Origin: a virus
Lineage: Duplodnaviria > Heunggongvirae > Uroviricota > Caudoviricetes
Strand: one strand, 5' to 3'
DNA: 64,000 bases
IMG/VR virus record: IMGVR_UViG_3300012940_000021
Location: 63,912-127,911 of that record
Both the position numbers and the translations under genes were made by a program. A model generated the notes under the pieces. The model ran no database searches. It worked only from the letters and a program-made list of their open reading frames with translations, and had not been told where the DNA came from. Of this stretch, positions 31,361 to 48,500 are shown one piece after another. Positions within the stretch are counted from its first letter, which is position 1. Each line of letters starts with the position of its first letter.

Positions 31361-31392
31361 TTGCAATTGTCATCCGCTAGGTATAGTCTGAA
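31361..31392 (+). promoter_or_regulatory. sigma70-like promoter P1 for plus-strand island: TTGCAA-15 nt-TATAGT, overlapping TTGCAATTGTCA element
   Basis: hexamers seen in sequence ~45 nt upstream of ATG 31431 (SD AGGAGGA). Confidence 0.55.
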
Positions 31393-31430
31393 TCACGGTC
31401 AACATTCATTTCCGAAAATAGGAGGACACC

Positions 31431-31796
31431 ATGGCCCAGCTCCCCGAAGGTCTCACCCAGAAGGACATCGACCGGCTCGCGCAGCTCGACGCCGGGATGA
31501 AGAAGCTCCAGGACGAGTACAACGCCCTGAAGGACAAGGTGAAGCGTGCCCATCAGGACGCGGGCCTCACCGGCAAGCAGACGCTCGTCTACCCGAGCGA
31601 CAAGTACGGGACCGTCATCGTGGACCTCAACGAGCAGAAGCGCGTGGACACCGAGGCCCTCATCAAGGCGCACCCCTTCGACAAGTTCCCGCAGTACTGG
31701 CGGATGCAGTTCGACCAGGCGGCGGTGGACGAGACCGTCCTCAACAAGTTCCGCACGAACGTCATCCCGACGCTCTCGATCAAGGTCGCGCAGTAG
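31431..31796 (+). CDS. hypothetical protein (121 aa)
   Basis: first gene of plus-strand island, strong SD. Confidence 0.65.
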   Translation: MAQLPEGLTQKDIDRLAQLDAGMKKLQDEYNALKDKVKRAHQDAGLTGKQTLVYPSDKYGTVIVDLNEQKRVDTEALIKAHPFDKFPQYWRMQFDQAAVDETVLNKFRTNVIPTLSIKVAQ

Positions 31797-31865
31797 GGGA
31801 GGGCACGCCGACAGAAGACGCCGACGAGCACCAAACCCAACGCCAGATCCTTCGAAAGGACATCC

Positions 31866-32846
31866 ATGTTCGTTCTTGCCATCATCGTCTTGCTGCTGGC
31901 CCTCGTGGCCTTCGTCGCCTCGTTCTTCATCCGGGTGACCGGCGAGCGCCGCAACCCCGAGACTCGGGAGTACGAGACCGTCGAGCTGAGGGGACCCACG
32001 CGGTGGACTCGCCTCGGTGCCTTCGGCGGATTCGTCCTCGGCGGTCTCTTCCTGCTGTTCGCGTCCTCCTACACCCAGGACCCCGGCGAGGCCAACGTGC
32101 TCCGCTCGTGGACGGGTGAGGTCGTCGGCTACGAGACCACGCCGGGCTTCCACCTGAAGGCCCCATGGGTGGACACCGTGACCTTCGACATCCGCAACCA
32201 GCGCGCCGTCTTCGTGAGCGAGCAGGTCGCAGGAGAGGGCGACAACGCGGGCGGCGTCGCGGATGGCCCGCAGATCACCGTGCAGGACGCCGAGGGCGTG
32301 ACGGCGAACATCGACATCGCCATCCGCTACAGCATCGACCCCGACGCGGTGGAGGGCATCTACGCCGACTACGGCAACGAGGAGAACCTGCGCTCGCGGC
32401 TCATCTTCAACGACATCCGCTCGGTCGTGCGCAACGTCCCCGGCTCGTTCGACACCATCGAGCTGCTGACGAACCGCACGGATGTCCAGAACGCCATCCA
32501 GGAAGCCCTGGAGGCGCGCTGGGAGGACGACGGCATCATCGTGGAGGACGTGGCGCTCCAGGAGATCCGCTACGGCGAGAGCGTGACCGCTGCCTTCGCG
32601 GCGGCGCAGGAGGCCCAGATCCAGGTCGAGACCGAGCAGGCTCGCCTGGAGGCCGTCCAGGTGTCGGCGCAGCAGAAGGTGGTCCAGGCACAGGCCGAGG
32701 CGGACGCCAACGCCATCCTGAACGCCTCGCTCACCCCGGCCATCCTCCAGCAGCGCTACTTCGACACGCTGCGTGAGCTGGCGGCGGCGGGCAACCTCGT
32801 CATCACCGACGGCACGAGCACCCCGCTGGTGCAGATTCCCCGGTGA
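31866..32846 (+). CDS. SPFH/band-7 (stomatin/prohibitin/HflKC-like) membrane protein (326 aa)
   Basis: N-terminal TM helix, band-7 core (LKAPWVDTVTFDIRNQ...), C-terminal coiled-coil/oligomerisation region. Confidence 0.75.
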   Translation: MFVLAIIVLLLALVAFVASFFIRVTGERRNPETREYETVELRGPTRWTRLGAFGGFVLGGLFLLFASSYTQDPGEANVLRSWTGEVVGYETTPGFHLKAPWVDTVTFDIRNQRAVFVSEQVAGEGDNAGGVADGPQITVQDAEGVTANIDIAIRYSIDPDAVEGIYADYGNEENLRSRLIFNDIRSVVRNVPGSFDTIELLTNRTDVQNAIQEALEARWEDDGIIVEDVALQEIRYGESVTAAFAAAQEAQIQVETEQARLEAVQVSAQQKVVQAQAEADANAILNASLTPAILQQRYFDTLRELAAAGNLVITDGTSTPLVQIPR

Positions 32847-33064
32847 TGAACACCCCGAAGTCCCTCGTGAGGGCGGGTGCGGTCCTGGTGGCCGTGCTCG
32901 CCCTCACGGGCTGTGAGCGCGCCGACGGCTTCACCGAAGAGGCCGAGCGGCAGTACACCATCGACTGCCTGGAGCTGGGCGGCGAACTGCGCGAGATCGA
33001 GGTTCCCGAGGTCAGCGCGCAGTGCGTCTTCACGTTCCCCGACCTCCCCTCCACTGACCAATGA
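32843..33064 (+). CDS. small lipoprotein (73 aa), translationally coupled to SPFH gene
   Basis: signal peptide with LTGC lipobox; ATGA start/stop overlap. Confidence 0.6.
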   Translation: MMNTPKSLVRAGAVLVAVLALTGCERADGFTEEAERQYTIDCLELGGELREIEVPEVSAQCVFTFPDLPSTDQ

Positions 33065-33465
33065 GCACTCGACTCGGACCCCTGTACCACTGGTCTCCAC
33101 GGGACCGGCTCAACAGCATCAAGCGTTACGGGCTGCTGCCCGGCAAGCGCAACATCCGAGGTCCCGTCTGGCACGGGAACGAGACCAACCCGAACATCGA
33201 CAACAACGAGGACATCGGGGAGGGGGAGTTCCTCCAGCGAGGCATCTGCTTCGCTCCAGACCCGGCTACGGCCTGGGACCTGTCGCACCGCATCTTCGAC
33301 GTGCCCGGCACCTACGACCTCTGGCAGGTCGTGCTGGAGGAGAGCGACGAGGTTCACATCCTGCCTCAGTGGGGGGCGCGCATCTGGGAGGTTCGCGTCT
33401 TCAACCGCATCTACAAGCGCCGCCTCATCTGGGTGGGTGAACGCACCATTCTGCCCCCCGACTGA
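33061..33465 (+). CDS. small protein (134 aa) with DarT/ADP-ribosyltransferase-like N-terminal motif; candidate toxin/effector
   Basis: LYHWSPRDRLNSIKRYGLLPG resembles DUF4433/DarT N-terminal NAD-binding motif; ATGA coupling to lipoprotein gene. Confidence 0.3.
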   Translation: MSTRLGPLYHWSPRDRLNSIKRYGLLPGKRNIRGPVWHGNETNPNIDNNEDIGEGEFLQRGICFAPDPATAWDLSHRIFDVPGTYDLWQVVLEESDEVHILPQWGARIWEVRVFNRIYKRRLIWVGERTILPPD

Positions 33466-33473
33466 GGGGTGGT

Positions 33474-33515
33474 GGCAATTGTCATCTATGCGATAGGGTG
33501 TCAATTGCAATCCCC
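33474..33515 (+). promoter_or_regulatory. promoter/operator region P2 with inverted pair GGCAATTGTCA ... TGTCAATTGCAA upstream of surface-protein gene
   Basis: two copies of the TTGCAATTGTCA-family element in opposite orientation; SD GAAGGGAGA before ATG 33553. Confidence 0.5.
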
Positions 33516-33552
33516 GTCTTGGGGAACAAGCTGGTCAACGAAGGGAGACCAC

Positions 33553-35481
33553 ATGAAGTTGAAGAAGATGTTGGCGGCGCTCTGTACGAGCGCGCTGATC
33601 GCAGGTGCTGCCGTCATCGGCATCGCCTCGGCGGCGCACGCCAGCGGGTCGGACAGCCCGACTCCGTACACGGTCGATGCCACCGGCATCACCCTGCCGA
33701 GTGGAGCGACCTTCCCGGACGGCGGTCACGTCAACATCAAGACGAGCGCCGGGGACAAGGGAATCCACTTCGAATCCCTCAACTGGCCCGACGACAACCC
33801 GAAGAAGTACTACATCGGCAAGTCGTTCATCCCGTGGAGCGCCTTCGGTCTGACCGGATGCTTCACGGTGACGTGGGTCCAGATCTCGATGTACAACGAG
33901 CACTTCGGTGATGGCGGGCAGTCGCCCATCCAGGTCGGAGACTGCGGCGAGGAGACCCCCAACAAGGTCTACGTCTGCAAGTACGTCGGGACCCCCGGCG
34001 TGAACGAGACCCTCCAGACGGGGAACAACCCCATCGAGGTCAGCGTGAACGCGATTCCGGGCTGGGACGGCACCACCATCCCGTTCCCCTTCGCGGATGC
34101 CCAGGGCAAGTCCGTGGTCATCGCGTTCTCGGATGGTCCCGGAGGAGGTCAGGGAGACGAGCCGGATCTGAGTGACTGTCCGACTCCCGAGGGTCCTCCG
34201 ACGGAGGAGCCGGAGTGCATCACCGCAGCCTGGCTCATGCCGGGTCCGTGGGTCGAGGGACAGGCCTCCTGGCCGCAGACGCTGATCGGCTTCGAGCCGC
34301 GTGCGTGTGGCGACCTGACCTGGCCGACGCCCGAGTGCGGGATCTCCATCCAGATCGACTCCTACAACGACAACGCCATCACGACGGCGCTCCTGACGCC
34401 GGGGAGGGTCCTCAACGGCCCGAACAACCCCCCGGAGTCGCTCTGGAGCGGATCTCCGGCGTGGCGGTTCGTCTACGGTGGGGATTGCCCGCCGCCCCCG
34501 GTGAACGAGTGCGTGGCCGGTGTCGGTGAGACCTTCACCAACGCCAACCCGATGATCGAGACCCCCGGTGCCAACCTCGGCACCTACACGGTCGAGTACG
34601 TCGAAGGCGCGGTCGAGCTGACGGTGGCTGACGGCAACTCGAAGATCAACCTCTCGTCGGGCAACCCCGGCTTCGCGCTCCACGACCTCGGTGTCCTCGA
34701 CATCCAGGCCACGGATCTGCACGACGCCTCGGACCCGTCGGGTGGCCTCGGACTGAACCTCTACGTCGATTTCGACAACGATGGTGATGTGGACGGCACG
34801 CTCGTCTACGAGGAGGTCTACGAGCAGGGTTCGGAGCAGGATCTCTGGCTGACCGGAGGCTCCGCGCAGTTCGTGAAGGACGCCGCGCCGGACACCAGTG
34901 GGGGCTTCGGCTCCGGCTGGCACGGCACGGCGAACGAGTGGCTGACGGAGTTCCCGGACGCTGAGGTCGTGGACTGGGCTGTCAACCTGGGTCGTTTCAC
35001 GGACTCGTCGTGGTCGCTGACTCAGGTCGGCATCAACTGCGCCGTGTTCGACTACGACCTGTACGTCGAGCCGGAGCCTGACCCCGAGGTCGTGACGCCG
35101 GAGGCCCCTGAGGCCACCGACGTGTGCGGCACCGAGGATGACGGCTACACGATCCCGGAGGACACCGAGGAGTTCGACTACTCGCTGTTCAACGACGACC
35201 GTGAGAGCGGCGTGGGCGAAGTGACGATCATCGCGGAGCCGAACGAGGGCTTCGAGGTCGCCACGCCTGGCGAGGGTGACACCTACGAGGTGGTGGAGGG
35301 CGTCGCGGTTTGGACGTTCGACTTCACCAACGAGGCGTGCCCGACCCCGACGCCGAAGCCCCCGGTGACCCAGGGGCTGGCCAACACCGGAGCTGAGATC
35401 GGGGCTGGCGTTCTCGCCGCCCTGGCCCTGCTGATCGGTGGCGGCGTCGCCCTGGGGATTCGCGCCCGCAAGAGTGCGTAG
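33553..35481 (+). CDS. secreted cell-wall-anchored surface protein (642 aa): signal peptide, Cys/Pro-rich central region, C-terminal LANTG sortase-type sorting signal + TM + basic tail
   Basis: MKLKKMLAALCTSALIAGAAVIGIASAAHA signal; C-terminus LANTGAEIGAGVLAALALLIGGGVALGIRARKSA. Confidence 0.7.
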   Translation: MKLKKMLAALCTSALIAGAAVIGIASAAHASGSDSPTPYTVDATGITLPSGATFPDGGHVNIKTSAGDKGIHFESLNWPDDNPKKYYIGKSFIPWSAFGLTGCFTVTWVQISMYNEHFGDGGQSPIQVGDCGEETPNKVYVCKYVGTPGVNETLQTGNNPIEVSVNAIPGWDGTTIPFPFADAQGKSVVIAFSDGPGGGQGDEPDLSDCPTPEGPPTEEPECITAAWLMPGPWVEGQASWPQTLIGFEPRACGDLTWPTPECGISIQIDSYNDNAITTALLTPGRVLNGPNNPPESLWSGSPAWRFVYGGDCPPPPVNECVAGVGETFTNANPMIETPGANLGTYTVEYVEGAVELTVADGNSKINLSSGNPGFALHDLGVLDIQATDLHDASDPSGGLGLNLYVDFDNDGDVDGTLVYEEVYEQGSEQDLWLTGGSAQFVKDAAPDTSGGFGSGWHGTANEWLTEFPDAEVVDWAVNLGRFTDSSWSLTQVGINCAVFDYDLYVEPEPDPEVVTPEAPEATDVCGTEDDGYTIPEDTEEFDYSLFNDDRESGVGEVTIIAEPNEGFEVATPGEGDTYEVVEGVAVWTFDFTNEACPTPTPKPPVTQGLANTGAEIGAGVLAALALLIGGGVALGIRARKSA

Positions 35482-35488
35482 TTCTACC

Positions 35489-35525
35489 CCTACCGAGAAG
35501 CCCCCTGGAGAGATCCGGGGGGCTT
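35489..35525 (+). terminator. stem-loop (AAGCCCCC...GGGGGGCTT) just after surface-protein gene
   Basis: seen in sequence. Confidence 0.5.
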
Positions 35526-35672
35526 CTTGGCGTGCGTGTCAATGTCCTCTGGACGGGGGACTTGTACCTGTAGTCTTCCTGGGAGTTGCGAAACCTCCGG
35601 CTCCTGCGGCGTCATAGTGGGGCTGGTCATCAGTCCCCTCGGTAGAACACAGGCCGACGCTGGGAGAGAAGA

Positions 35673-35954
35673 ATGGCCGATCTGACCGTCGAGAACATGT
35701 TCACCGAGCGGAGCTACGCCATCGAGGACCGGCTCCCCGTCGAGGCGCTCTCGGCGCTCGACCGCAAGCGGATGCTGGTCCACGTGCTGGCCGACATCAC
35801 TCAGAAGATTCTGAGCGCTCCAAGCGCCAACCCCGTGGGCCTCGCCATCACGGTCACTGTGGTGCCCGGCATCTGCCCTGAGCGCAAGCCGGATCTGCTG
35901 GTGACGGCGACGTGCCCTCAGTACGAGCTGGACGACTCGTTCTTCTCGCCCTGA
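35673..35954 (+). CDS. hypothetical protein (93 aa), last plus-strand gene of island
   Basis: SD GAGAGAAGA; complete ORF. Confidence 0.5.
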   Translation: MADLTVENMFTERSYAIEDRLPVEALSALDRKRMLVHVLADITQKILSAPSANPVGLAITVTVVPGICPERKPDLLVTATCPQYELDDSFFSP

Positions 35955-36181
35955 TCGAACAGCTCTGGAGCCAGTTCTTCGAGCGTGACGATCTCCACGT
36001 CATCTGGAGTACGCCCGTGCCGCTTGATGGCGATGTGGGCCGCGATGCCCACGCCAAGGAGCACAGCCGCGTAGGCTGCGCCGACGATCACGAATGCGAG
36101 CACCACGGCACCCCCTTTCGAGTCGGATAGTACGCCGAGAGGTTCCTGAGAACGCCCTCCCCCGAAAGGGTGTCACGAAAC

Positions 36182-36502
36182 TCAGTTGTCGAGGATGTGC
36201 TCGACCGCGAGCCACTTCTCCGTAGCGCTCGATCCCATGGTCCGCAGGGTGCGGATGGCGGCGAGCTTCAGCTCGGCCTGGTCTCGGTCCGGGAAGATCG
36301 CGTCCATGAGCGCCACGCGGTCGGAGTAGTACCGGTAGATGGTCGCCACCGAGCAGCCCGCGAGGGCCGCGACCCCATCGAAGTTGAAGCGGTCGCGGCC
36401 CACGTCCTCGTAGTGCTGTCGTGCAGCGGCCAGGATGGCCTCCACGCGGGCCTTGGCACGTCCCTGGACCGGAATGGCACGCAGGTTGGTATCGAGGCTC
36501 AT
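36182..36502 (-). CDS. TetR-family transcriptional regulator, short (106 aa)
   Basis: HTH signature GRDRFNFDGVAALAGCSVATIYRYYSDR; SD GAGAAGGAGAAGG. Confidence 0.7.
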   Translation of the reverse strand: MSLDTNLRAIPVQGRAKARVEAILAAARQHYEDVGRDRFNFDGVAALAGCSVATIYRYYSDRVALMDAIFPDRDQAELKLAAIRTLRTMGSSATEKWLAVEHILDN

Positions 36503-37125
36503 GCGGCCTTCTCCTTCTCGCTCGTCAGCCACTTCTGGACGAACTCCTGAGGGACCAACTGGCCCTCCCAGGCGTCGATCCCGACGTGGAGCTGGTTGGG
36601 GAACTCGAACTTCTCGTCGCTGTGGACGTGCCCGTGGACGAGTGGGAGGCCGAGGTTCGGCAGCCGGTACTGCTCGAAGCGCGGCTCCACGCGGTCGTAG
36701 GGCATGTACGGGAAGTGACTCAGCAGGAAGTCGATCCCGTTGAGCTTCCGCCGCAGGTACGGCTGGATGGTCTCGAAGTACTTCAGCCAGTGCGGCAGGA
36801 GCCGAGTCGAGCGCCGGTCCCACGGCCCGACCGGATCGTGGTTGCCCGCGATCAGGTGCTTGATGCCCGGACGCCGCTCGATCCAGTCGAGGGCGTGCTG
36901 CCCGCCGTTGATCGAGATGTCGCCCAGTACGAAGATCTGGTCGTCGTCGCGGAGCGTCGAGTCCCAGATGTCCGCGAGCCAGGCGTCGTGCGCCTCGGTA
37001 TCCGGCATGGCGACGGGACCGCCGAGCGGGTCGTCCGCCACGTTGTCCTCGTCGTAGAAGCCGCGAAGGCCCGCCACGAGGCGGTGACCGATGTGCAGGT
37101 CGCTGGTGTAGTAGATGCGGCTCAT
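36499..37125 (-). CDS. calcineurin-like metallophosphoesterase (208 aa)
   Basis: SDLHIGH, VLGDIS, GNHD, GHVH motifs. Confidence 0.8.
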   Translation of the reverse strand: MSRIYYTSDLHIGHRLVAGLRGFYDEDNVADDPLGGPVAMPDTEAHDAWLADIWDSTLRDDDQIFVLGDISINGGQHALDWIERRPGIKHLIAGNHDPVGPWDRRSTRLLPHWLKYFETIQPYLRRKLNGIDFLLSHFPYMPYDRVEPRFEQYRLPNLGLPLVHGHVHSDEKFEFPNQLHVGIDAWEGQLVPQEFVQKWLTSEKEKAA

Positions 37126-37535
37126 TTCGAGACCACCTTCACTTCGCGGGCGAATGCCTGGACCCACTCGGGGGCCTCGTGCAACTGGAGCCGACCGACG
37201 GAATCCATGAAGTCCCACGGGTTCGCCAGATCGACCTCGCAGGTGGCGGGAGCGTGCTCTGCGAAGAACTTCTCGTACCAGACCCGCCCCTCCCACCAGT
37301 TGTAGGTGTGGATGCGGATCGTCTGGGGCCAGAAGTTGTTGTCGCGCATCCACACGGCCACCCAGATGAAGGTCCAGCCCAGCGTGGCGTGCGCGTCGTA
37401 GTCGAACGAGACCACTTCGACGGTCTCGCCAGTCCGCTGAGCCTCTTTGAGCGCGAGGATGGCCTCCTCGACGGTCCACGCCTGACGGTCGTAGAACGAC
37501 GGGAGCGGGCGGTTGTCGTCAATCCAGAGCTTCAT
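37122..37535 (-). CDS. hypothetical protein (137 aa)
   Basis: GAGGAGG SD; ATGA coupling. Confidence 0.55.
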   Translation of the reverse strand: MKLWIDDNRPLPSFYDRQAWTVEEAILALKEAQRTGETVEVVSFDYDAHATLGWTFIWVAVWMRDNNFWPQTIRIHTYNWWEGRVWYEKFFAEHAPATCEVDLANPWDFMDSVGRLQLHEAPEWVQAFAREVKVVSK

Positions 37536-37548
37536 GATCCGCCTCCTC

Positions 37549-38352
37549 TCAGGCGTATCGGTATCGGTTGAAGTCGATGAGGATGTCCCAGGCTCGGGCA
37601 TCCCGGATCTCGGTGTCGAGCACGCCGAGCGAGAAGTTCATGTTGTCCTTGGCCAGGCCGAGGACCTGGCACTGGTGCCACTGCTCCCCGCGCTGGACGT
37701 TCAGGTGCTCGGTGACGAGGAAGTGGTAGTGCCCGTGCAGCAGAAGGCTCGGAGCGACCTCCTTGAAGGCCCTGGTGAGCAGCGCCCGTCCTTCGGCGGC
37801 GTACTCCAGGTCCTCCGGCGTGAAGCCGTTCGGGTTGCCCGCGATCCGGCGCTCGATCTCCTGGACGCCCCTGGGAGCGTCATGACAGACCATCACGTCG
37901 GCGTAGCCGCCGTCGATGACCTTCTGCACGTCCTCGTCGGTAATGGCCTCCTCCGGCCACCAGGACTTCGCCGCCGTCTTCAGCCGATAGGCCCGGTCCA
38001 CCGACGGAGCGCCGCCGAGAGCCACGAAGGACACCCCGTCCCACTCCCAGCGGTGGCCGCGAGGCGCGAGCAGGATGCGCTCGCGGAAGCGCTGCCAGCC
38101 GTCGTCCTGCACCGGCAGGGCGTTGATCTGGTCGTAGTCCTCATGGTTGCCGGGCACCACGTAGAGCTTCTGGTGGTAGTTCCGCAGCAGGATGTTGACC
38201 CGGTTCATCAGGCCGACGTTCTGCTCGCCGGGCCAGATGCCGAAGTCCCCGAGCTGGAGGATCGTGGTGACGCCCTCGCGGTTGAACTTGTTGAGGGCGT
38301 ACATCAGCCAGGCGTAGTTGGCATGCGTGTCGCCCAGGAGTCCGATCTTCAC
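37549..38352 (-). CDS. Ser/Thr-phosphatase-like metallophosphoesterase (267 aa)
   Basis: KIGLLGDTHANY, LQLGDFG, GNHED, GHYH motifs; GTG start in GTGA overlap. Confidence 0.75.
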   Translation of the reverse strand: MKIGLLGDTHANYAWLMYALNKFNREGVTTILQLGDFGIWPGEQNVGLMNRVNILLRNYHQKLYVVPGNHEDYDQINALPVQDDGWQRFRERILLAPRGHRWEWDGVSFVALGGAPSVDRAYRLKTAAKSWWPEEAITDEDVQKVIDGGYADVMVCHDAPRGVQEIERRIAGNPNGFTPEDLEYAAEGRALLTRAFKEVAPSLLLHGHYHFLVTEHLNVQRGEQWHQCQVLGLAKDNMNFSLGVLDTEIRDARAWDILIDFNRYRYA

Positions 38353-38630
38353 AGGTGCTTCCCCGCCTTCTCCGACACGTAGGCCCAGGTCAGGAACTTC
38401 TTCTGGCCCAGGGCCTGGAGCCGACGGAAGGCGTAGACGGTGCATTCGAGATCCCGGATGAGCTTCGCCGGGTCGGTGCAGTCGTCCATCCACACCACGT
38501 GCTCGCCCACCGTGACCTCCGCAACCCACGTCAGATCGACGCCGTGACCGCGCTCCGTGTAGAGCGCGCCCCGGACTGGGCCACTGGTCTTCTTGATGGG
38601 CATGTGTTCCTCTTTCTGACTATCGGTCAA
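38349..38630 (-). CDS. hypothetical protein (93 aa; alternative start MPIKK at 38603)
   Basis: first gene of operon downstream of TTGCAATTGC element. Confidence 0.5.
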   Translation of the reverse strand: MTDSQKEEHMPIKKTSGPVRGALYTERGHGVDLTWVAEVTVGEHVVWMDDCTDPAKLIRDLECTVYAFRRLQALGQKKFLTWAYVSEKAGKHL

Positions 38631-38637
38631 TCCTACC

Positions 38638-38658
38638 AGAAGATTGCAATTGCTACTA
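38638..38658 (-). promoter_or_regulatory. P3: TTGCAATTGC operator-like element / -35-like TTGCAA upstream of operon 38630->36182
   Basis: member of 5-site TTGCAATTG(T/A)CA family. Confidence 0.4.
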
Positions 38659-39183
38659 CTTCAGCCACGGGTTGCGCATCTGCTGGACCACGCCGATGAA
38701 GCCGTGCTCCCGGTCCTCCACGAAGAGCGGGGTCAGCATCGTCTTGGTGTCCTCGCCCACCTTGAAGATGACGGTCTCGACCTCGTAGGCCGACAGAAGA
38801 TCCGAGAGGTAGTGGTGGTTGACCACCCACTCCCGAGCCTTCCCGTTCCCGGCCCACTGGCACTCGATGACCTCCTGGCTGGCGTTCCCCGCCGCATCCT
38901 GCGCACGGACGGCGAGGGACCAGACGATCTGGTTCTGGGCGTCCCTCGGGCCGGGAACGAGGCGCAGAGCGATGGCGGCGGTGTCGGGGTCCGCGTTGAT
39001 GCGCACCCGCTTGACGGACTCGGCCAGCTCCAGTCGGTCCACGGTGAGTGAGAACGGATTCGAGAACGCCGCGCCGAAGATGAGGGTGTCCAGTTCTGGG
39101 AAGGGGATGAGCAGCCGCTGCGCGACAATGAAGTCCTCCCCGATTCTGAAAACGAGATGGATGTCGTCGTAGCCCATCTCCAT
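38656..39183 (-). CDS. dnaN: sliding clamp (DNA pol III beta-like) domain III portion (175 aa); same frame as 39220-39900, separated by one in-frame TAG
   Basis: beta-clamp domain III-like sequence; 36 nt (12 codons) in frame between the TAG and this ATG. Confidence 0.6.
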   Translation of the reverse strand: MEMGYDDIHLVFRIGEDFIVAQRLLIPFPELDTLIFGAAFSNPFSLTVDRLELAESVKRVRINADPDTAAIALRLVPGPRDAQNQIVWSLAVRAQDAAGNASQEVIECQWAGNGKAREWVVNHHYLSDLLSAYEVETVIFKVGEDTKTMLTPLFVEDREHGFIGVVQQMRNPWLK

Positions 39184-39219
39184 GAACTCGGCGTCGGTCT
39201 CGGTGAGCGCCTTCAGGAG

Positions 39220-39900
39220 CTAGTCGGTCACCTTCAGAGGGATCGAGACATCGGTGGTTGTAGCGACTACTCCTAGGTCGGCTCGGTGCAATCGCCCCCC
39301 ATCACACCCGGTAACGGTTTGGTTACGAACCTGGACCTGGGAGAGGGCGAGCCGGGCACTCGTGGACGCCGCCTTGCGGGCGATGCTCAGGGCATTCACG
39401 AATGGCCCGATGGCGACTGTCTGCAACTCGATGCCGCTCACGTCCAGGAGGGTGCTCAGCGAGTCCCCCACCGGAATCTGAACGGTCCACTGTGCCCGGC
39501 CCGACCGGATGATCGCCGCCGTGCCGATGACCTCGATTTTCGCGGTCGCGGACGGGGCGAGCTTCAGGATGTCTGAGATGCGCTTGGCGGGGACGAGAAC
39601 TGCCCCGGCCATGAGCACCGAGATGTCGTCCACGACCACGGAGACTGTCTGGTCGCCGTCGCTGGCGGTGATGCGCAGGTGCGCCGCCTGGGTGTTCGTA
39701 GTCTGGACGGCCTCCAGCAGCGCGTGAGCGGTGCCGGGGATGACCTCGCGCTGTGGGAGGACGGCGGCGGCACGCGAGAACAGGGCGAGGAGCTTCGACA
39801 CGCTCGCCTTGATGCTCAGCCTGGCATCGACGGGCAGGATCTCCGGGACGAACTCCGAGTCCTCGTGCTCCATCTCCACCAGCTCGGAGAGGTCAGGCAT
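39220..39900 (-). CDS. dnaN: sliding clamp domains I-II portion (226 aa) ending at in-frame amber codon
   Basis: LKLAPSATAKIEV...IRSGRAQWTVQIPVGD typical beta-clamp; stop TAG at 39220-39222. Confidence 0.65.
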   Translation of the reverse strand: MPDLSELVEMEHEDSEFVPEILPVDARLSIKASVSKLLALFSRAAAVLPQREVIPGTAHALLEAVQTTNTQAAHLRITASDGDQTVSVVVDDISVLMAGAVLVPAKRISDILKLAPSATAKIEVIGTAAIIRSGRAQWTVQIPVGDSLSTLLDVSGIELQTVAIGPFVNALSIARKAASTSARLALSQVQVRNQTVTGCDGGRLHRADLGVVATTTDVSIPLKVTD

Positions 39901-42904: not shown

Positions 42905-42946
42905 GGTTCCTCACAGGTGGATAGGGCTGTGGATAACTGATCGTCG

Positions 42947-43586: not shown

Positions 43587-43712
43587 CCGAACACCTGCAC
43601 CACTCCGCATTCGCCGCAGACGGTTCCCATGCCGTCGCGGATCTGGCTGTCGATGGGATGCTGGCACTCTGGATCGCCGTAGCGAGGGAAGCGCGCCCTG
43701 GTGTCCTCGTCC

Positions 43713-44123: not shown

Positions 44124-44125
44124 GG

Positions 44126-44605
44126 CTATACCTCCGGGATGAGTGCGGTGCCCCTGCGGGGCGCGATCATGATGAACCCCATGCCCATCATCTGATCGGC
44201 CTGTTCGCCCTCGATGCCGAGCGTCTGCGGAGTGACGACCTCCCAGAGGCCCAGGTGGTTGCCGAGCGCCATGAACGCCATGGCGAGGCCCTGGTCCCCG
44301 ATCCAGCCGCCGAGTTCGATGTACGACGGCCCTCCGGCCAGGCGCTCCACCGGCTCGTCGGCGTGGTAGCCCTTCTCCGCTGCTCGGATGGCGTCCGCGA
44401 ACGCCTCGGCGGTGAGCGTGGAGTCGTCCTTGGCCTTGAACCGGAGGAAGCCCACGTCGATCCCTTCGTCGCTCTCCTTCGGGAGCTGGACGAGGTTGTT
44501 GCGGACGATCTCCGCGAGGGTCTGAATGCCGAGGTAGGGGTCGGCGGCGGTGTCGTTCACGGTGCCTCCTATGGGTTGATGCGGACGCCGTGCTCGTAGA
44601 GCCAC
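44126..44605 (-). CDS. hypothetical protein (159 aa)
   Basis: complete ORF. Confidence 0.45.
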   Translation of the reverse strand: MALRARRPHQPIGGTVNDTAADPYLGIQTLAEIVRNNLVQLPKESDEGIDVGFLRFKAKDDSTLTAEAFADAIRAAEKGYHADEPVERLAGGPSYIELGGWIGDQGLAMAFMALGNHLGLWEVVTPQTLGIEGEQADQMMGMGFIMIAPRRGTALIPEV

Positions 44606-44937
44606 TCCGCGATGGTCATGCGTCGGTAGGTGGTGTTCCGCGAGTTGTACTCCCGGAGGATGAGCGTGAGCCGCTCGACGGTCTCTCGCTTGTCGAAGTA
44701 GATGTGCTGGAGGGGGTCCTCCGGCTTCTTCTTGGGCCGCTTCGGTGCCGTCCCGGCGAGCCTCTCCATGAAGTTGTCGATGTCCTCGCTGGTCGGCTGG
44801 ACCTCAACCACTTGGCGTCCGACGATTCGCTTCGTCGGGATCAGCTCCGAAGTCGGCACAGTCCGACGTGGCGGCTCCTCCTGACGAGGAGGCGGCAGCG
44901 GCTTCTTGCGCCACGGCGGCGTGAACTCGATGGGCAA
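44569..44937 (-). CDS. hypothetical protein (122 aa)
   Basis: complete ORF. Confidence 0.45.
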   Translation of the reverse strand: MPIEFTPPWRKKPLPPPRQEEPPRRTVPTSELIPTKRIVGRQVVEVQPTSEDIDNFMERLAGTAPKRPKKKPEDPLQHIYFDKRETVERLTLILREYNSRNTTYRRMTIAEWLYEHGVRINP

Positions 44938-44982
44938 GGGGCGACCTCGTTTCCTAAAACTAGAGTTGACCTACGATCAGGA

Positions 44983-45411
44983 CTACAGCTTGCGCACCAT
45001 GGCCGAGGAGGCGATGGTCACCGGACCGCGCTCGGTGTCCACGTGCAGCCAGTGCGACCCCTTGTCGATGGTGGAGATCCGGCCCTTCAGCCAATCGCCG
45101 TTCTTCATCGCCTCGACCTCCTCGCCCTGGCGGTACTCCTTCAGCGGCGGCTGCGGGTTCTTCTCGGGCTGGGGCACGTAGTTCCGGCCCTTCCAGTTGA
45201 TGACCTTCTCGTCGGTCGATGCGAAGATCTCCGGGCCGAGCACGATGGTGTCACCCTCCAGGCGCGGATAGTCCACCGAGGCGTCGTCCTTGGGGGAGGG
45301 CTTAGCCCAGCCCTTCTCGACCAGCTTCTCCGCGAGCGCCGCCGCTCCGAGGTCGTTGCTGCCGTCCACTTCGCGGATGTCGGCGGCGAGGTCGTTGATG
45401 ATGTCGGTCAT
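44983..45411 (-). CDS. hypothetical protein (142 aa, MTDIINDLAAD...)
   Basis: ATG overlapping stop of upstream gene (ATGA). Confidence 0.5.
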   Translation of the reverse strand: MTDIINDLAADIREVDGSNDLGAAALAEKLVEKGWAKPSPKDDASVDYPRLEGDTIVLGPEIFASTDEKVINWKGRNYVPQPEKNPQPPLKEYRQGEEVEAMKNGDWLKGRISTIDKGSHWLHVDTERGPVTIASSAMVRKL

Positions 45412-45971
45412 GGGCGTGCTCCGTAGTTGATCTTGTTGACGGTGAGCTTCGAGCGGTTGAAGTAGGTCCCCAACTCCTTCAGCCACTTCTCCTTCGCGTC
45501 GGCCTTCACATAGGCCAGGGTCAGGTGGGGACGGTAGTCGGGGTAGGTGTTGACGTGCGGCAGCAGCTCCAGGCGCTTGTGCCCCTCCAGCAGCTCGTCG
45601 GTCACCTTGATGTGCGCGACGATGCAGGCATACGGCTCATCCTGGAACGGGGAGTCGAACGAGCCGAGCGACTCGATCTCCAGCACCGGGGGAGTCCAGT
45701 CCGCGAGCACGATATCCACGAGGGGCTTCCAGGTGACCGCGCTCTCCAGGAGGCCGTAGAGCAGCGTGACGTGCGCGACGGTCTCGGCCACCGCTCCGTC
45801 GATCCAGAAGCGCTCCTTGTTCTGGGCGAAGTACAGGTCGTCCTTGCCCTTGGTCACGAGGTCGGTGACGGTCAGGGGGTCCACGTCGAGCATGACGCAC
45901 CCCAGCTCGTTCACCTTGACGCCGAGCGCCGTGTAGACATCCGGGAACTGGTTGGCATTGAGGCCGGTCAT
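45408..45971 (-). CDS. 2H phosphoesterase superfamily protein (LigT/cyclic phosphodiesterase-like), 187 aa
   Basis: two H-x-T-x motifs: AHVTLLYG and PHLTLAYV. Confidence 0.6.
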   Translation of the reverse strand: MTGLNANQFPDVYTALGVKVNELGCVMLDVDPLTVTDLVTKGKDDLYFAQNKERFWIDGAVAETVAHVTLLYGLLESAVTWKPLVDIVLADWTPPVLEIESLGSFDSPFQDEPYACIVAHIKVTDELLEGHKRLELLPHVNTYPDYRPHLTLAYVKADAKEKWLKELGTYFNRSKLTVNKINYGARP

Positions 45972-46237
45972 ACGGGTTCCTTCTCGTGCAGGCGGTTGAT
46001 GGCCCCGATGTAGTCGAAGACGGCGTGGGCCTGCGCGGTCTCGTGGGTGGGGTAGGAGCCGTCCACCACGGCTTCGATGTGCTCCGTGCGGCCCCTGAGG
46101 GCCTCGACGCCCACCGTGAACCGCACGATGTCCCTGCCGGGCTTCAGGCCCCGCGTGGCGGCGTACTGGCCCATTCGCTGGGCGTTGCCGAAGAAGACGA
46201 TCACGAGGCCACCTTCGGACGGATGGCGGCGTACCAC
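45968..46237 (-). CDS. hypothetical protein (89 aa)
   Basis: complete ORF. Confidence 0.45.
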   Translation of the reverse strand: MVRRHPSEGGLVIVFFGNAQRMGQYAATRGLKPGRDIVRFTVGVEALRGRTEHIEAVVDGSYPTHETAQAHAVFDYIGAINRLHEKEPV

Positions 46238-46590
46238 CGGCTCATGAGCCAGGCGACCGCTGCCTCCTTGTGCTCGTGCTTCGGCTCGAAGGAGCGCATG
46301 ATCGTGTGCAGGTGCCGGAACGCGGCCTCACCGTCCACGTCGGGGCGCTGGTAGAGATAGCGGTCCTCCGGCCAGCCCTTGAAGAACCAGTCGCGCACGA
46401 AGACGTTCCACTCCGTCCGCCCGTTCATGTTGCGGAACTCCTCCGGGATCGAGTCCCAGGGCGGCAGGAGCTTGTCCAGGTGGCCGGGGAAGGCGTAGAG
46501 CACGTCGTCCACGACCAGGGGCTGGTCGTAGCCGTCGTTCAGCGGTGGCGGAGCCTCCCACTGGATCTCGGGAGCGTCGGATGTCGTCAT
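46201..46590 (-). CDS. hypothetical protein (129 aa)
   Basis: complete ORF. Confidence 0.45.
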   Translation of the reverse strand: MTTSDAPEIQWEAPPPLNDGYDQPLVVDDVLYAFPGHLDKLLPPWDSIPEEFRNMNGRTEWNVFVRDWFFKGWPEDRYLYQRPDVDGEAAFRHLHTIMRSFEPKHEHKEAAVAWLMSRWYAAIRPKVAS

Positions 46591-46868
46591 CGGCGTGGGG
46601 CCTTTCCGGTACGGAGGAACTGGGCGAGCTGCTCCAGCATCGCGGGGAACTGCTCGCGGAGCAGGGGGAGTAGCTCGGGGTTTTCCTCCAGCGAGCGGGT
46701 GAGGTCGTAGAGGGCGAGGTTGGCGGGGACGACGTGCTCCCTGGTGCGGTTGCGCTCGTCACGGATACCGAGCCGGTAGCCCTCCATGAAGTCTCGCTTG
46801 CGCAACTGCCGCCGACGCCCATAGCGCAGGAAGCGCTCCTTGTAGCCGCGCCAGGCGGTCTCGGCCAT
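46587..46868 (-). CDS. hypothetical basic protein (93 aa from ATG; GTG at 46883 in motif also in frame)
   Basis: starts right after right-arm motif. Confidence 0.45.
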   Translation of the reverse strand: MAETAWRGYKERFLRYGRRRQLRKRDFMEGYRLGIRDERNRTREHVVPANLALYDLTRSLEENPELLPLLREQFPAMLEQLAQFLRTGKAPRR

Positions 46869-46879
46869 CTCGATATCGG

Positions 46880-46897
46880 TCACGTGGGTGATACGCC
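46880..46897 (-). promoter_or_regulatory. right-arm motif (GGCGTATCACCCACGTGA); GTGA supplies stop of upstream and possible start of downstream gene
   Basis: seen in sequence. Confidence 0.5.
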
Positions 46898-47746
46898 TTC
46901 GTGGGTCACTCGGTACAGGGTCTCGAACAGCTCGCCGTAGCGCTTCCCCGGCGTGGTCTTCTCCATCCAGACCCACCGCTCCTTCGGATCGAGCTTCTTC
47001 ATCTCGGCGCGGAGGGCGACGAACTCCTGGCCCTCCTCGGTCTTGATCCACTCGGCTTCGAGAGCGCGGCGGGCCTCGGCAGCCTTGCGCTGCTCCTCCG
47101 CCTTGCGCTTGTTCTCTCGTGCCTTGCGGCGTCGCTCGGCCTCGTAGCGCTTGCGGGCTGCCTGCGCCTTGCGGTGAGCACTGCGGATGCGCTTGTCGAG
47201 ATGGTCGCCGCCGATGAGGATCGAGATCTCCACCGGGAAGAGCGAGTCCGGGAACCGGTTCTCCCACGTCACCTTCGGAGGCTGGTAGGGATAGCCCGCG
47301 TTGGTGTATCGGCCCCCGTAGGGGTCGTCTTTCGGCACGCGCTTCCGCTTGGCCCCCAGGAAGGGGTCCTCGACGCCCGACTCGCTCTGCGGGGGGAAGA
47401 ACTGGAACGGCTCTCGAATCCAGCCGGTGAACGTGATGTTGCCATCCCACGAGTGCTTGAACTGCACGCTGTGAAGGGCGACATAGAACGGCTTGGACAC
47501 GTCCCCCTCGTCATCACGTGCCCACGGGTGACGCAGCTCGATGAAGGCTCGGTTCGGCTCGCCGGGGTTGGCGTTCAGGGCACCGTTCATGACGTAGAAG
47601 AGCGTGCGGCTCAACTCGCTCGGCCAGCCGACCTCGTAGGAGAAGGCGTCGTCCAGGGAGATCTTGACGACGTAATCGACCGACTCTCCCTCCGCATCCT
47701 CGATGAGGTACGGGAAGAGGGGGCGCTTCAGCGTGATGGCGTTCAC
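46880..47746 (-). CDS. hypothetical protein (288 aa) with C-terminal Arg/Lys/Glu-rich coiled-coil
   Basis: complete ORF. Confidence 0.5.
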   Translation of the reverse strand: MNAITLKRPLFPYLIEDAEGESVDYVVKISLDDAFSYEVGWPSELSRTLFYVMNGALNANPGEPNRAFIELRHPWARDDEGDVSKPFYVALHSVQFKHSWDGNITFTGWIREPFQFFPPQSESGVEDPFLGAKRKRVPKDDPYGGRYTNAGYPYQPPKVTWENRFPDSLFPVEISILIGGDHLDKRIRSAHRKAQAARKRYEAERRRKARENKRKAEEQRKAAEARRALEAEWIKTEEGQEFVALRAEMKKLDPKERWVWMEKTTPGKRYGELFETLYRVTHEGVSPT

Positions 47747-48447
47747 GCCCCCTCCTCCCGAACGATCTGGGCGATGCGAGCACGCTCGTCGTCCGTCAGG
47801 GCCTTCCAGATGGCTCGCGCTCGGTCGGCGCGTTCCTCGGCCCAGACCGGCTCGGAGAGGTCGATGATCTCGCCCAGGACAGACGTGTCGTCCTTGCGCT
47901 CCCGGAAGACCTCCGTGGCGTAGAGGCCCCCTCGGGTGGCCTTGACCGCCCAGCCCGCGTCGATGACCGCCTGCTCCGCCTCTCGGCGCAGCCCGATGAC
48001 GTGAGAGCCGAAGGCTTCCGTGTCCTGGAGGTCTTCCAGGTCCGAGATGCTCACGAAGGTCTCGCCGGACTCCGCCTCACGTCCGAGGCTGGGATAGGCC
48101 GGGATCGTGTACGGCAGCACCACGCCGTGGCGCAGCTCGATGCTCGTGGCGATCTTGACCTCGCTGCCCTTGGTGTACTTCGGCTCCACGGGCTTCGGCG
48201 GGTCCCACTCGAAGTGGCGAGCGCGGTGCTCCTTGGACTGGCTCTCCCAGCCGAGGGCGTAGCGGTAGCACTCATCCACCGAGTCGCCGTTGGTCGGCAC
48301 CTTGGATCGGGGGTCCTCGCCGGGCATGACGTAGATCGGGTAGTTGTCGCCGGAGAACGAGTCCCAGGCCACGATCATGTGCGTCGCGCCGAGGCGTTCG
48401 CCTTCGTCGTAGGCCGCTTTGATGTCGGCTTCGAGCCAAGTCGCCAT
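47743..48447 (-). CDS. hypothetical protein (234 aa)
   Basis: AGGAGG SD; consensus sigma70-like promoter upstream. Confidence 0.55.
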   Translation of the reverse strand: MATWLEADIKAAYDEGERLGATHMIVAWDSFSGDNYPIYVMPGEDPRSKVPTNGDSVDECYRYALGWESQSKEHRARHFEWDPPKPVEPKYTKGSEVKIATSIELRHGVVLPYTIPAYPSLGREAESGETFVSISDLEDLQDTEAFGSHVIGLRREAEQAVIDAGWAVKATRGGLYATEVFRERKDDTSVLGEIIDLSEPVWAEERADRARAIWKALTDDERARIAQIVREEGA

Positions 48448-48451
48448 GGTT

Positions 48452-48500
48452 CCTCCTGATAGTTGACCTACCGTTAGCTTAGCACTCGGATTGCAATTGT
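48452..48500 (-). promoter_or_regulatory. P4 sigma70-like promoter TTGACA-16 nt-TAAGCT embedded in TTGACAATTGCAA element
   Basis: hexamers and spacing read directly; followed by AGGAGG and ATG 48447. Confidence 0.6.

Follow-up and report, generated by a model that had tools for sequence, protein, structure and literature searches.

The window, a stretch of 64,000 nt that makes up half of the genome of a 128-kb uncultured metagenomic actinobacterial phage related to Microbacterium phage Magritte, carries a recurrent palindromic element in its intergenic DNA. Judged from its sequence and its conservation among relatives, this element is probably (about 55%) a functional cis-regulatory block at promoters read with a host sigma factor, where its dyad would dock a dimeric repressor encoded by the phage.

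Identification of the element

The repetition of TTGCAATTG, noticed earlier at five sites, is confirmed as real, and the coordinates first assigned to these sites were off by 0-7 nt. All five copies hold, but the count was incomplete, as a sixth copy (site 5 in the table) had been overlooked. The generalised pattern TNNCAWTTGNNATC has 6 matches in the window compared with 0.03 expected, and all six are intergenic and co-oriented with the downstream gene. A pattern search of the window for exact TTGCAATTGWCA returned three occurrences against 0.00 expected, at 31361 (+), 33499 (-) and 48491 (+), and copies with one and two mismatches are located at 33473 and 38644, respectively. A position-weight matrix trained on 25 sites from seven genomes, which includes the downstream TC flank, detects exactly six sites in the window with scores of 20-28 bits. 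The next-best score in the window is at most 11 bits, and the maximum in shuffled sequence is 15.5 bits. The gap between the six sites and the next-best score indicates that no element copies lie within window genes. Five further copies lie beyond the window, in the replication and tRNA region of the other half of the genome (L038, same contig), so that the source phage has no fewer than 11.

Element sites in the window and the operon of site 3
Feature	Class	Position	Strand	Sequence or product	Matrix score (bits)	Putative promoter	Downstream
Site 1	A	31361-31374	+	TTGCAATTGTCATC	25.2	TTGCAA as -35, 17 nt 5' of -10 TAGTCT (31384-31389)	GGTCAAC 31397-31403; ATG of 121-aa gene at 31431
Site 2a	C1	33473-33486	+	TGGCAATTGTCATC	25.4	-10 TAGGGT (33494-33499), 9 nt downstream	642-aa gene, ATG 33553
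Site 2b	C2	33499-33512	+	TGTCAATTGCAATC	22.8		
Site 3	B	38642-38655	-	TAGCAATTGCAATC	27.8 (best)	directly 3' of clamp-gene stop codon; -10 TAGGAT (38630-38635), 8 nt downstream	operon 36182-38603, mini-TetR gene last
Site 4		48489-48502	-	TGACAATTGCAATC		within TTGACA (48498-48503)-N16-TAAGCT (48476-48481)	GGTCAAC 48462-48468, then AGGAGG, then ATG at 48447
Site 5		59391-59404	-	TGGCATTTGCCATC	22.2	9 nt 5' of TGG-TAAACT, extended -10 (59378-59383)	GGTCAAC 59364-59370; ATG at 59349
Mini-TetR gene		36182-36502	-	106 aa; last gene of site-3 operon			
Rest of site-3 operon		36499-38603	-	84-aa protein, Metallophos phosphoesterase (267 aa), cREC_REC protein, p208			

The family consensus of the element is TnGCAATTGCnA+TC, which in the source genome extends to a 16-bp dyad, G.T.GCAATTGC.A.C. 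In agreement with the quasi-palindrome described earlier, the information profile is mirror-symmetric (paired bits 1.4/1.2, 0.5/0.5, 1.0/0.7, 1.4/1.4, 2.2/2.2 and 1.7/2.0), and the outer G...C pair is mirrored at 10 of the 11 source-genome sites. Site 5 is embedded in a perfect 8+2+8 palindrome, GGATGGCA-TT-TGCCATCC. TTGACA had been assigned to every copy; it is found only at 48498-48503 and within 33499-33510.

The hexamer CAATTG occurs only five times in the 64 kb, each time at an element site, and all five occurrences are intergenic, intergenic DNA making up 11% of the window. CAATTG is a palindrome of the MunI/MfeI type, so that the element might be a methyltransferase target that tunes promoters or a remnant of restriction purging; all window copies of CAATTG fall in promoters and none falls in coding sequence, and the phage encodes Dam-type and N6/N4 methyltransferases. 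Either reading is very unlikely, given that CAATTG shows no overall depletion (5 observed, 3.5 expected), that relatives have intragenic CAATTG, that functional variants carry CATTTG or CAAATG cores, and that conservation reaches well past the hexamer.

Architecture of the promoter cassette

The element is the most upstream of three parts that make up a cassette. The palindrome with its -35 is followed, after 7-11 variable nt, by a TAnnnT -10 and, about 7 nt further on, by a GGTCAAC leader, which lies at or near the putative start site and precedes a Shine-Dalgarno sequence. At 48476-48503 (minus strand), the TTGACA-16-TAAGCT promoter and its AGGAGG Shine-Dalgarno sequence are arranged as described before. 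The proposal that the element overlaps -35-like hexamers of predicted host sigma-70/SigA-type promoters is supported by conserved orthologous promoters in six related genomes (L013, L014, L015, L017, L018 and L019), in which only the element, the -10 and GGTCAAC are conserved and the flanks are unalignable. The sequence comparison likewise supports the cassette as a putative genome-wide promoter class conserved among the related phages. Particularly, the site 1 promoter is kept in all six relatives, where its -10 aligns as TAnnCT; site 2a has orthologues in L013, L014, L019 and L018, and GTAGCAATTGC is kept in 6 of 7 orthologous site-3 promoters.

Sites 2a and 2b were previously regarded as an inverted pair. 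Matrix scores including the TC flank instead favour a tandem pair, 26 bp apart, and the tandem arrangement recurs in L013, with a spacing of 26 bp, and in L014, with one of 34 bp. Site 2b begins on the last T of the site-2a -10, spans the start-site region and has no downstream -10 of its own; by its position it behaves as an auxiliary operator-like copy. The 642-aa protein encoded downstream has an N-terminal signal-peptide-like segment, as read by eye from the sequence.

The distance from the element to the -10 is 8, 9 or 11 nt depending on the promoter, and each value is kept among orthologues; at the tRNA-Met promoter it is only 2 nt. The centre of the element at about -26 to -30, the weak -35 of most sites (3-4 of 6 matches) and the copies preceding replication-region genes would suit an activator, encoded by the phage, that takes over or aids recognition of the -35 at middle-gene promoters, modelled on the T4 MotA box. 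An activator site is nevertheless improbable, since the element is symmetric and its register varies by at least 3 nt, whereas a MotA-type box is asymmetric and stands at a fixed distance. Moreover, site 4 is a perfect promoter requiring no activator, other copies lie over the start site, and in a distant phage of 124 kb the element dominates an early-looking small-gene region that is necessarily read by unmodified host polymerase.

Distribution among related phages

The promoter class is apparently common to a family of actinobacterial phages of ~113-128 kb, as judged from sequence comparison. The distant 124-kb phage, with 55% GC, has 18 sites of at least 18 bits in 37 kb, located at 17 promoters, and the element is found on about ten other metagenomic contigs. 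Magritte, L004 and L005 do not carry the element. A different -35/spacer word, TTAGCGCGTA, which is not palindromic, is conserved at 12 sites in Magritte.

The earlier note placed the element upstream of operons that look early or lysogenic and considered it an operator or promoter class. The promoter class and the operator-like features stand; the lysogenic part finds no support, as no integrase or immunity-type repressor is found in ~97 of the 128 kb or in the Magritte annotation. The multiple dispersed copies of one short site do resemble a stoperator or CIR-type layout, and a reversed gene island adjoins two sites, as might be expected for operators of a prophage immunity repressor that decides between lysogeny and lysis, in the way of Cluster A stoperators or phiC31 CIR sites. 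This possibility is highly doubtful. Neither the ~97 kb covered of the 128-kb genome nor the 250 annotated features of Magritte include an integrase, an excisionase or a CI/Cro-type gene. The tRNA array, the phage's own replication machinery and the nearly one-strand gene arrangement give no sign of a temperate lifestyle, and the sites lie in core promoters rather than in blocking orientation inside transcription units.

Operator-like features and proposed mechanism

The element is missing from three SigA-like promoter candidates in the window, and relatives have canonical element-free promoters at the same position; it is therefore not needed for promoter function. Together with the dyad symmetry, the variable register relative to the -10 and the conserved copies that cannot serve as -35, these palindrome-free promoters favour a site for a dimeric repressor as the most likely reading of the sequence.

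In the proposed mechanism, a 12-bp dyad (extending to ~16 bp) would be joined to the -35/spacer region of promoters that RNA polymerase reads with the host primary sigma factor. The left half of the palindrome would double as the -35, and the whole dyad would serve as the docking site for a dimeric repressor made by the phage. The bound repressor would occlude RNA polymerase, and its build-up would switch off or damp the promoter class. At the promoter of the 642-aa gene, the second copy over the start site would allow tighter control, while the mini-TetR protein, encoded last in the operon driven by the strongest site, might repress its own operon, as Aca proteins do.

Some observations speak against a repressor. 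The register spread of 2-3 nt (8-11 nt at the main promoters) is roughly tolerated by sigma-70-type spacers, and in relatives the right arm (ATC) is more conserved than the left outer arm. Moreover, the left half-site is -35-like in either register, so that conservation is partly explicable by polymerase contacts alone.

Less probable than a repressor site, and the strongest of its competitors, is that the element belongs to the promoters themselves, as an extended -35/spacer consensus that is specific to this phage family and shared by its strong early promoters, with no dedicated repressor. Selection by the host polymerase, together with duplication or gene conversion of whole cassettes, would then keep the copies similar, in parallel with the early promoters of T4 and with PeSLs, the mobile regulatory cassettes found in T4-type phages. 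In line with this, the 124-kb phage has the element before almost every small early gene, with near-identical 48-nt cassettes in sub-families, and TTGCAA lies exactly 17 nt from the -10 in the prevailing geometry. The entire cassette is conserved, GGTCAAC included, rather than the palindrome alone; the Magritte word offers a non-palindromic counterpart; gene content between cassettes differs among relatives, as for PeSLs (PMC2839356, PMC4122927); and a candidate binder is identified in one clade only. Polymerase contacts would not readily account for the mirror-symmetric profile, with a palindrome that reaches 16-18 bp at many sites, or for an invariant word TTGCAA in place of the sigma-optimal TTGACA. 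Nor would they explain the conserved copies that are unusable as -35, being situated over the -10/+1 or 16 bp 5' of another copy, the copy within the spacer of a separate TTGACA-17-CATACT tRNA promoter, or the palindrome-free promoter candidates in the same genome.

A candidate repressor

The mini-TetR protein contains the sole recognisable DNA-binding domain among the ~60 window proteins. It matches Pfam TetR_N at 3e-7 and is composed of a TetR-type N-terminal helix-turn-helix domain and two short helices, without a ligand-binding domain. The ORF downstream encodes an unrelated membrane protein and is separated by two stop codons. A search of 5.8 billion proteins yielded 17 homologues, 99-111 aa long, that form a family in which the recognition helix does not vary. 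The AlphaFold2 model has a pLDDT of 88.6, and all top Foldseek matches are TetR regulators of at least 171 aa. The preceding gene, p208, is weakly Metallophos_2-like and overlaps the mini-TetR start by 4 nt; 7 of 7 clade genomes carry the pair, and the site-3 operon is missing from Magritte, L004 and L005.

The mini-TetR may be the binder of the element in this clade, acting as an autorepressor, an assignment that we offer tentatively and consider rather doubtful. The mini-TetR and the element are found together in 7 of 7 clade genomes, among them L018, which has diverged as far as the genomes lacking both, and the promoter of the mini-TetR operon has the best-scoring site. In the 124-kb phage, no mini-TetR was detected in 37 kb (HMM search and Pfam, 75 ORFs), by the IMG/VR-wide search or among the 17 homologues, and a p208 homologue there precedes an unrelated gene. 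The element would thus be older and more widespread than the mini-TetR, and another regulator must bind it in that phage. The remaining ~31 kb of the source genome could hold another regulator as well.

Comparison with known systems

The site-3 operon resembles those of the Aca autorepressors (PMC9410906) in that the last gene of a phage accessory operon encodes a small helix-turn-helix protein and an inverted repeat lies within the core promoter of that operon. The predicted role, damping a strong promoter, is also the same. However, the protein here has a TetR-type fold outside the Aca1-10 families, phosphoesterase and cREC_REC proteins take the place of known anti-CRISPRs in the operon, and the same inverted repeat is present at at least 10 other promoters genome-wide.

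With TetR/tetO, the phage shares a TetR-family DNA-binding domain, a short palindrome overlapping the promoter of its own operon, and tandem operators at one target. In contrast, the mini-TetR lacks the ~120-aa ligand-binding/dimerisation core of every solved TetR matched; it would therefore not undergo classical ligand induction and must dimerise differently. The conserved core GCAATTGC is also more compact than the typical 14-15-bp TetR half-site spacing.

PeSLs are composite promoter and stem-loop-terminator units of Gram-negative myoviruses, and PeSL and T4-type early promoters likewise place similar cassettes before small variable early genes in large lytic-type phages (PMC2839356, PMC4122927). 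Here, too, the cassettes flank regions whose genes vary between relatives, whereas the conserved upstream block is a palindrome and the cassette is defined without a terminator half.

Like stoperators and the phiC31 CIR repeats, the element is one short site at many intergenic positions of an actinobacterial phage and is linked to transcription. Cluster A stoperators are asymmetric, act inside transcription units and form part of an immunity system; the sites described here are symmetric and located in the -35/spacer, and no lysogeny genes were found in ~97 of 128 kb. The T4 MotA box is asymmetric, keeps a constant spacing and binds an activator once sigma has been appropriated. Like the element, it is a phage-specific sequence whose centre lies near -30 and which is paired with a host-type -10, whereas the element is symmetric, varies in register and can coexist with a perfect -35. 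As a kind of feature the element is ordinary, while its form is undescribed.

Occurrence of the palindrome in the source genome

The recurrent motif described in the earlier note, a promoter-embedded palindrome with a CAATTG core that overlaps the -35 region, is real. TTGCAATTGWCA is found exactly three times in the window against 0.00 expected, accompanied by one-mismatch and two-mismatch copies at 33473 and 38644. The 64-kb window has just five CAATTG hexamers, all at element sites, and these sites occupy the four lowest-GC intergenic gaps. When the sites are aligned along the direction of the downstream gene, the generalised pattern TNNCAWTTGNNATC gives six matches (0.03 expected), adding a sixth site (site 5) to the five known before; every one of the six points the way its gene is transcribed. 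With a weight matrix derived from 25 sites in seven genomes, the six window sites score 20-28 bits, everything else in the window 11 bits or less, and shuffled sequence up to 15.5. The matrix scan therefore reveals no copies scattered at random inside genes, which had been named beforehand as the outcome that would speak against the motif. Sites 2a and 2b, earlier taken for an inverted pair, are instead favoured as a tandem pair 26 bp apart by matrix scores that include the downstream TC flank. Avoidance of CAATTG as a restriction footprint was rejected, as the hexamer is not depleted and is present inside genes in relatives.

The window (65% GC) is a near-identical variant, distinguished by a few SNPs, of the 128,478-bp metagenomic contig ENA ERZ27256362 k141_473844. 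Nearly all its genes lie on the minus strand, the exception being one plus-strand island. About 97 kb of the source genome was read, composed of the window, ~10 kb past its low end (segment L010), 0.8 kb past its high end (L012), and L038, a 22.7-kb segment around the DNA polymerase in the replication region. The genome-wide motif search proposed earlier yields 11 sites in this ~97 kb. L038 contributes four more full element-bearing promoters and a fifth, weaker copy, TGGCAATTGACGCC, which lies within the spacer of a TTGACA-17-CATACT promoter directly upstream of tRNA-Met, in an array of at least seven tRNA genes. Since the palindrome sits inside this promoter, the same regulator may gate phage tRNA expression as well.

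The operons behind the element had been considered early or lysogenic. The lysogenic part of this reading is not borne out: neither integrase nor immunity repressor, both required by a temperate immunity system of stoperator or CI type, is present among the Pfam-annotated called genes of the ~97 kb read out of 128 kb, nor in the annotation of the cultured Microbacterium phage Magritte. The source genome carries a tRNA array and its own replication machinery.

Coordinates of the element sites and other features in the window and related segments
Feature	Position	Strand	Remark
Site 1	31361-31374	+	
Site 2a	33473-33486	+	
Site 2b	33499-33512	+	over -10/+1
Site 3	38642-38655	-	
Site 4	48489-48502	-	
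Site 5	59391-59404	-	
Site-3 operon	36182-38603	-	84-aa protein, Metallophos phosphoesterase, cREC_REC protein, p208, mini-TetR
Mini-TetR gene	36182-36502	-	106 aa
Plus-strand island	31431-35954	+	
SigA-like promoter candidates without element	31168, 31085, 51151		
GGTCAAC leader copies	31397, 48462, 59364		start 7 nt after -10
GGTCAAC leader copies	33533, 44965, also 41091		
GGTCAAC leader copies	L038 3430, 18608, 20030		
tRNA-Met promoter with TGGCAATTGACGCC	L038 21544-21645		
GGCCGATATCACA(TAG) copies	819, 4863, 7216, 7751, 20123, 26224	-	
Magritte promoter words (examples)	L001-L003 87379-87407, 90772-90788, 132722-132731		
"Empty" gap	30638-31151		514 nt, next to site 1
Candidate structured RNA	30726-31065	-	
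Sliding-clamp-like gene	38656-39900		split into 226-aa and 175-aa ORFs
In-frame TAG	39220-39222	-	CAG in ENA contig
3,531-aa ORF	9645-20240	-	head-gene region
G-rich end	63935-64000		

Anatomy of the promoter cassette

Each promoter has -35-like and TAnnnT hexamers 15-18 nt apart upstream of an RBS-bearing gene, as expected for the sigma-70/SigA type. Sites 1, 2a, 4 and 5 pass a relaxed promoter scan; the spacer at site 3 is 15 nt. The element is separated from TAnnnT by 8 nt at site 3, 9 nt at sites 2a, 4 and 5, and 11 nt at site 1. Site 4 is located within a TTGACA-16-TAAGCT promoter, exactly as the earlier note had it. At site 1, TTGCAA is positioned exactly 17 nt from TAGTCT, which is fixed as the -10 by orthologue comparison, and the -10 hexamers are conserved at orthologous promoters in general.

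A further word, GGTCAAC, is found 21 times in the window (7.4 expected), with eight copies in the intergenic 11% of the window. It lies ~7 nt past the -10 and usually 3-6 nt ahead of the Shine-Dalgarno sequence. The offset is exactly 7 nt at three window promoters (Table) and at several orthologous and L038 promoters, which is only suggestive of a transcription start. GGTCAAC, which may represent a conserved transcript 5' end or leader signal, also occurs in palindrome-free relatives (contig L005 and one Magritte site). At 44965 the leader and GGTCAAC are kept and the palindrome is lost; the orthologue in contig L015 (L015:896) has the palindrome. The promoter unit is thus a three-part cassette composed of the palindrome/-35, the -10 and the GGTCAAC leader. 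TGAC-N5-GTCA after the -10 was tried as a second, TetR-specific operator and is not enriched (4 observed, 1.4 expected); it is merely part of the general -10...GGTCAAC block.

The 514-nt gap beside site 1 holds a candidate new structured non-coding RNA on the minus strand. Its DNA is 75-82% identical over about 260-350 nt in five relatives, and it has its own palindrome-free SigA-like promoter, TTGCGA-17-TACATT, whose -10 is kept in every one of the six sequences. From these six alone, RNAalifold predicts a fold of 92 pairs, and 20 pairs show compensatory double changes. The candidate matches no Rfam family, either at the gathering threshold or at E<=1, and the whole window has zero Rfam matches.

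Conservation in relatives

No close DNA relative of the window is found among GenBank phages. Magritte (133 kb, ~30 tRNA genes, genes almost all on one strand, no integrase annotated) is the closest relative in culture and has a terminase 64% identical to that of the window; it is related at the protein level only and its whole 133 kb contains no site of 15 bits or more. Homologues of the 121-aa gene that follows site 1 are found in Magritte and in IMG/VR contigs L004-L007, and all of these genomes have canonical promoters at the site-1 position that lack the CAATTG element. The six long contigs with a homologue of the mini-TetR, the TetR-like protein encoded by the site-3 operon (L013, L014, L015, L017, L018 and L019), are all syntenic with the window and carry the element at orthologous promoters (6/6). 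The tandem pair is likewise conserved, at a distance of 26 bp in L013 and 34 bp in L014. In alignments of orthologous promoters only the element, -10, GGTCAAC and RBS are conserved, and the upstream flanks are unalignable. At the sequence level, this conservation reads as a clear phylogenetic footprint.

The small-gene region of Magritte has its own promoter words, TTAGCGCGTA at 12 sites and ACGTGCAATAAT at six. TTAGCGCGTA is non-palindromic and located in the -35/spacer or -10 region. These words suggest that every lineage of the phage family has a promoter signature of its own. The structural-gene half of the window has a different repeated word, GGCCGATATCACA(TAG), with six copies restricted to that half and often placed at gene junctions; its 10-mer core occurs four times against 0.01 expected. 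The Magritte analogue is GATATCCCTG, found 11 times in the structural region. The GGCCGATATCACA word may mark a late-promoter class or a junction signal.

Three further features of the window are recorded here. An in-frame TAG cuts the sliding-clamp-like gene in two; the ENA contig has CAG at this codon and a single 414-aa gene, and the TAG reflects a nonsense variant or, alternatively, a sequence error. The head-gene region contains one 3,531-aa ORF with a strong coding signal (GC3 0.92) and no Pfam family on record; its place between portal and scaffolding genes is comparable to that of Magritte gp17 (1,991 aa). The last ~66 bases of the window are almost all G, with 44 mismatches to the ENA contig, and are probably an assembly-end artefact rather than biology.

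The cassette in a distant phage

The composite cassette signature was used as a query of public collections and found a 124-kb, 55% GC phage and about ten shorter contigs. The 124-kb phage is recorded both as IMGVR_UViG_3300031836_000002 and as Ga0256369_100001: L021 and L022 match parts of L034 and L028 at 100% identity. The 124-kb phage has 17 element-bearing promoters, or 18 sites of at least 18 bits, within 37 kb of its small-gene region. The few proteins it has in common with the window are a DNMK-type kinase, an Nlig-Ia domain protein and a homologue of p208, the weakly phosphoesterase-like neighbour of the mini-TetR. Here p208 is followed by an unrelated 467-aa ORF. No mini-TetR was detected by HMM search of the ORFs of this phage, by Pfam on 75 ORFs, or by an alignment-based scan of all IMG/VR, and none of the 17 known homologues lies on a contig of its size. 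The element is older than the mini-TetR.

Operator or plain promoter element

The element is an operator-like palindrome embedded in the promoter, and it is the hallmark of a promoter cassette conserved in a phage family yet to be characterised. We favour its function as an operator with a probability of about 0.55; specific protein binding and repression at the element are candidate activities, proposed from sequence. All sites overlap the -35/spacer region, as an operator within the core promoter would. The information profile of the 12-mer is mirror-symmetric, and among the source-genome sites the symmetry reaches further, over a 16-bp dyad, G.T.GCAATTGC.A.C, with positions +/-1-3, +/-6 and +/-8 complementary in 91-100% of the 11 sites.

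The element could tentatively be regarded as an intrinsic component of a promoter class instead. Nearly every promoter of the 124-kb phage that looks early carries it, and near-identical 48-nt cassettes occur there; the dominant spacing is 17 nt; the conserved Magritte word TTAGCGCGTA is likewise a -35/spacer word without being a palindrome; and T4 early promoters and PeSL cassettes provide precedents (PMC2839356, PMC4122927). However, the dyad symmetry counts for an operator, as does an invariant TTGCAA in place of the sigma-optimal TTGACA. Moreover, the element stands in registers of 2, 8, 9 and 11 nt from the -10, each main value being kept among orthologues, and three SigA-like promoter candidates in the window do without it. 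Some conserved copies lie over -10/+1 or 16 bp upstream of another copy and are thus unable to serve as a -35. Site 2b is such an auxiliary copy, with no -10 downstream and a layout kept in L013 and L014; further copies of non-promoter type are the tandem ones in the 124-kb phage and the one in the tRNA-Met promoter spacer.

Two known box types were also compared with this operator-like palindrome and rejected. A MotA-box-type middle promoter would have an asymmetric box at a fixed distance replacing the -35, whereas the element is symmetric, lies at variable distances from the -10, and at site 4 coexists with a consensus TTGACA. A Fur/Nur-type box differs in architecture, the Fur operator having the spacing TTGCAA-N5-TTGCAA.

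The mini-TetR and its operon

The earlier note proposed the short TetR-family protein as a possible binder. The mini-TetR matches Pfam TetR_N at 3.2e-7, above the curated cutoff, and has the N-terminal three-helix HTH of the TetR type. Its best PDB sequence matches are TetR regulators, the top 50 Foldseek matches all belong to the TetR family, and the AlphaFold2 model (pLDDT 88.6) has six helices. The protein thus contains a genuine TetR-type DNA-binding domain. The C-terminal ligand-binding/dimerisation core (helices 4-9, ~120 aa) is absent, the mini-TetR stopping after two short helices at residue 106. It is not a broken full-length TetR, as two stop codons and then an unrelated membrane-protein ORF follow, nor a truncated pseudogene, as the family is uniformly about 100-110 aa long (17 homologues, all 99-111 aa). 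The family shows no variation at residues C50, S51, T54, Y56, R57 and Y58 of the recognition helix, consistent with a conserved DNA target. Covariation between this helix and motif variants is uninformative because the helix hardly varies.

Magritte, L004 and L005 lack the site-3 operon, and relatives differ in its gene content, with p208 and the mini-TetR alone constant. Together with a nearby 2'-5' RNA ligase-type gene, the operon, which includes a cyclic-phosphate-processing receiver protein (cREC_REC), could form an RNA-repair or counter-defence module. Searches with Pfam and PHROGs identify no other DNA-binding domain among ~60 window proteins, and no DNA-binding protein among 75 ORFs of the 124-kb phage; the sole marginal matches are a weak ParB-like domain and an AP2/HNH homing endonuclease.

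In all seven genomes with the mini-TetR, the element is located at the operon promoter, and Magritte, L004 and L005 lack both. L018, no closer to the window in its core proteins (54-69%) than the genomes with neither (45-70%), nevertheless has both. Counter to this co-occurrence, the 124-kb phage carries the element without a detectable mini-TetR, and therefore the protein cannot be its universal binder. At best, the mini-TetR was recruited to an older palindrome. That it binds the element in the source phage is plausible but less likely than not; the proposed target of a mini-TetR dimer would be the candidate dyad GATTGCAATTGCAATC.

An elaborate extension of this idea, which we consider unlikely, is that a minimal TetR was recruited in one clade to the ancestral cassette palindrome and now acts as a genome-wide, self-limiting shut-off repressor at 11 or more promoters, its own included. 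Such a protein would be a DNA-binding domain only, with no ligand pocket. One repressed promoter would drive its own phosphoesterase/cREC_REC operon, and any signal would reach the repressor in trans through p208, its translationally coupled partner, with no fused ligand domain.

Discussion

Our analysis confirms and extends the original observation with a sixth window site, genome-wide copies and conservation in relatives; its interpretation is partly supported, the operator-like palindrome defining a conserved promoter class being borne out and the lysogenic reading finding no support. If correct, the result provides a map of a single transcription class, with a clear sequence rule and no fewer than 11 promoters, in a large family of ~113-128-kb actinobacterial phages that is entirely uncharacterised and has been seen almost exclusively in metagenomes. 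It would also offer a simple pair for study, the 16-bp dyad with the 106-aa truncated TetR, which could show a TetR DNA-binding domain working without the ligand-binding core. In addition, the cassette (palindrome, -10, GGTCAAC) is a practical search key, one pattern having given more than 12 related contigs missed by protein searches.

A sequence-string literature search surfaced the Fur operator as the sole prokaryotic regulator-binding site, and the literature on actinophages contained nothing relevant on this motif or cassette. Phages are well known to carry both operators embedded in promoters and repeated early-promoter cassettes, and the element is not a new kind of system. PeSL mobile regulatory cassettes, in which a repeated early promoter is joined to a stem-loop terminator and flanks indels between close relatives, are a possible counterpart: the promoter is repeated here, and the gene content between cassettes varies among relatives. 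The mini-TetR gene closes the operon whose promoter holds the best-scoring site, a layout resembling that of the Aca autorepressors (PMC9410906).
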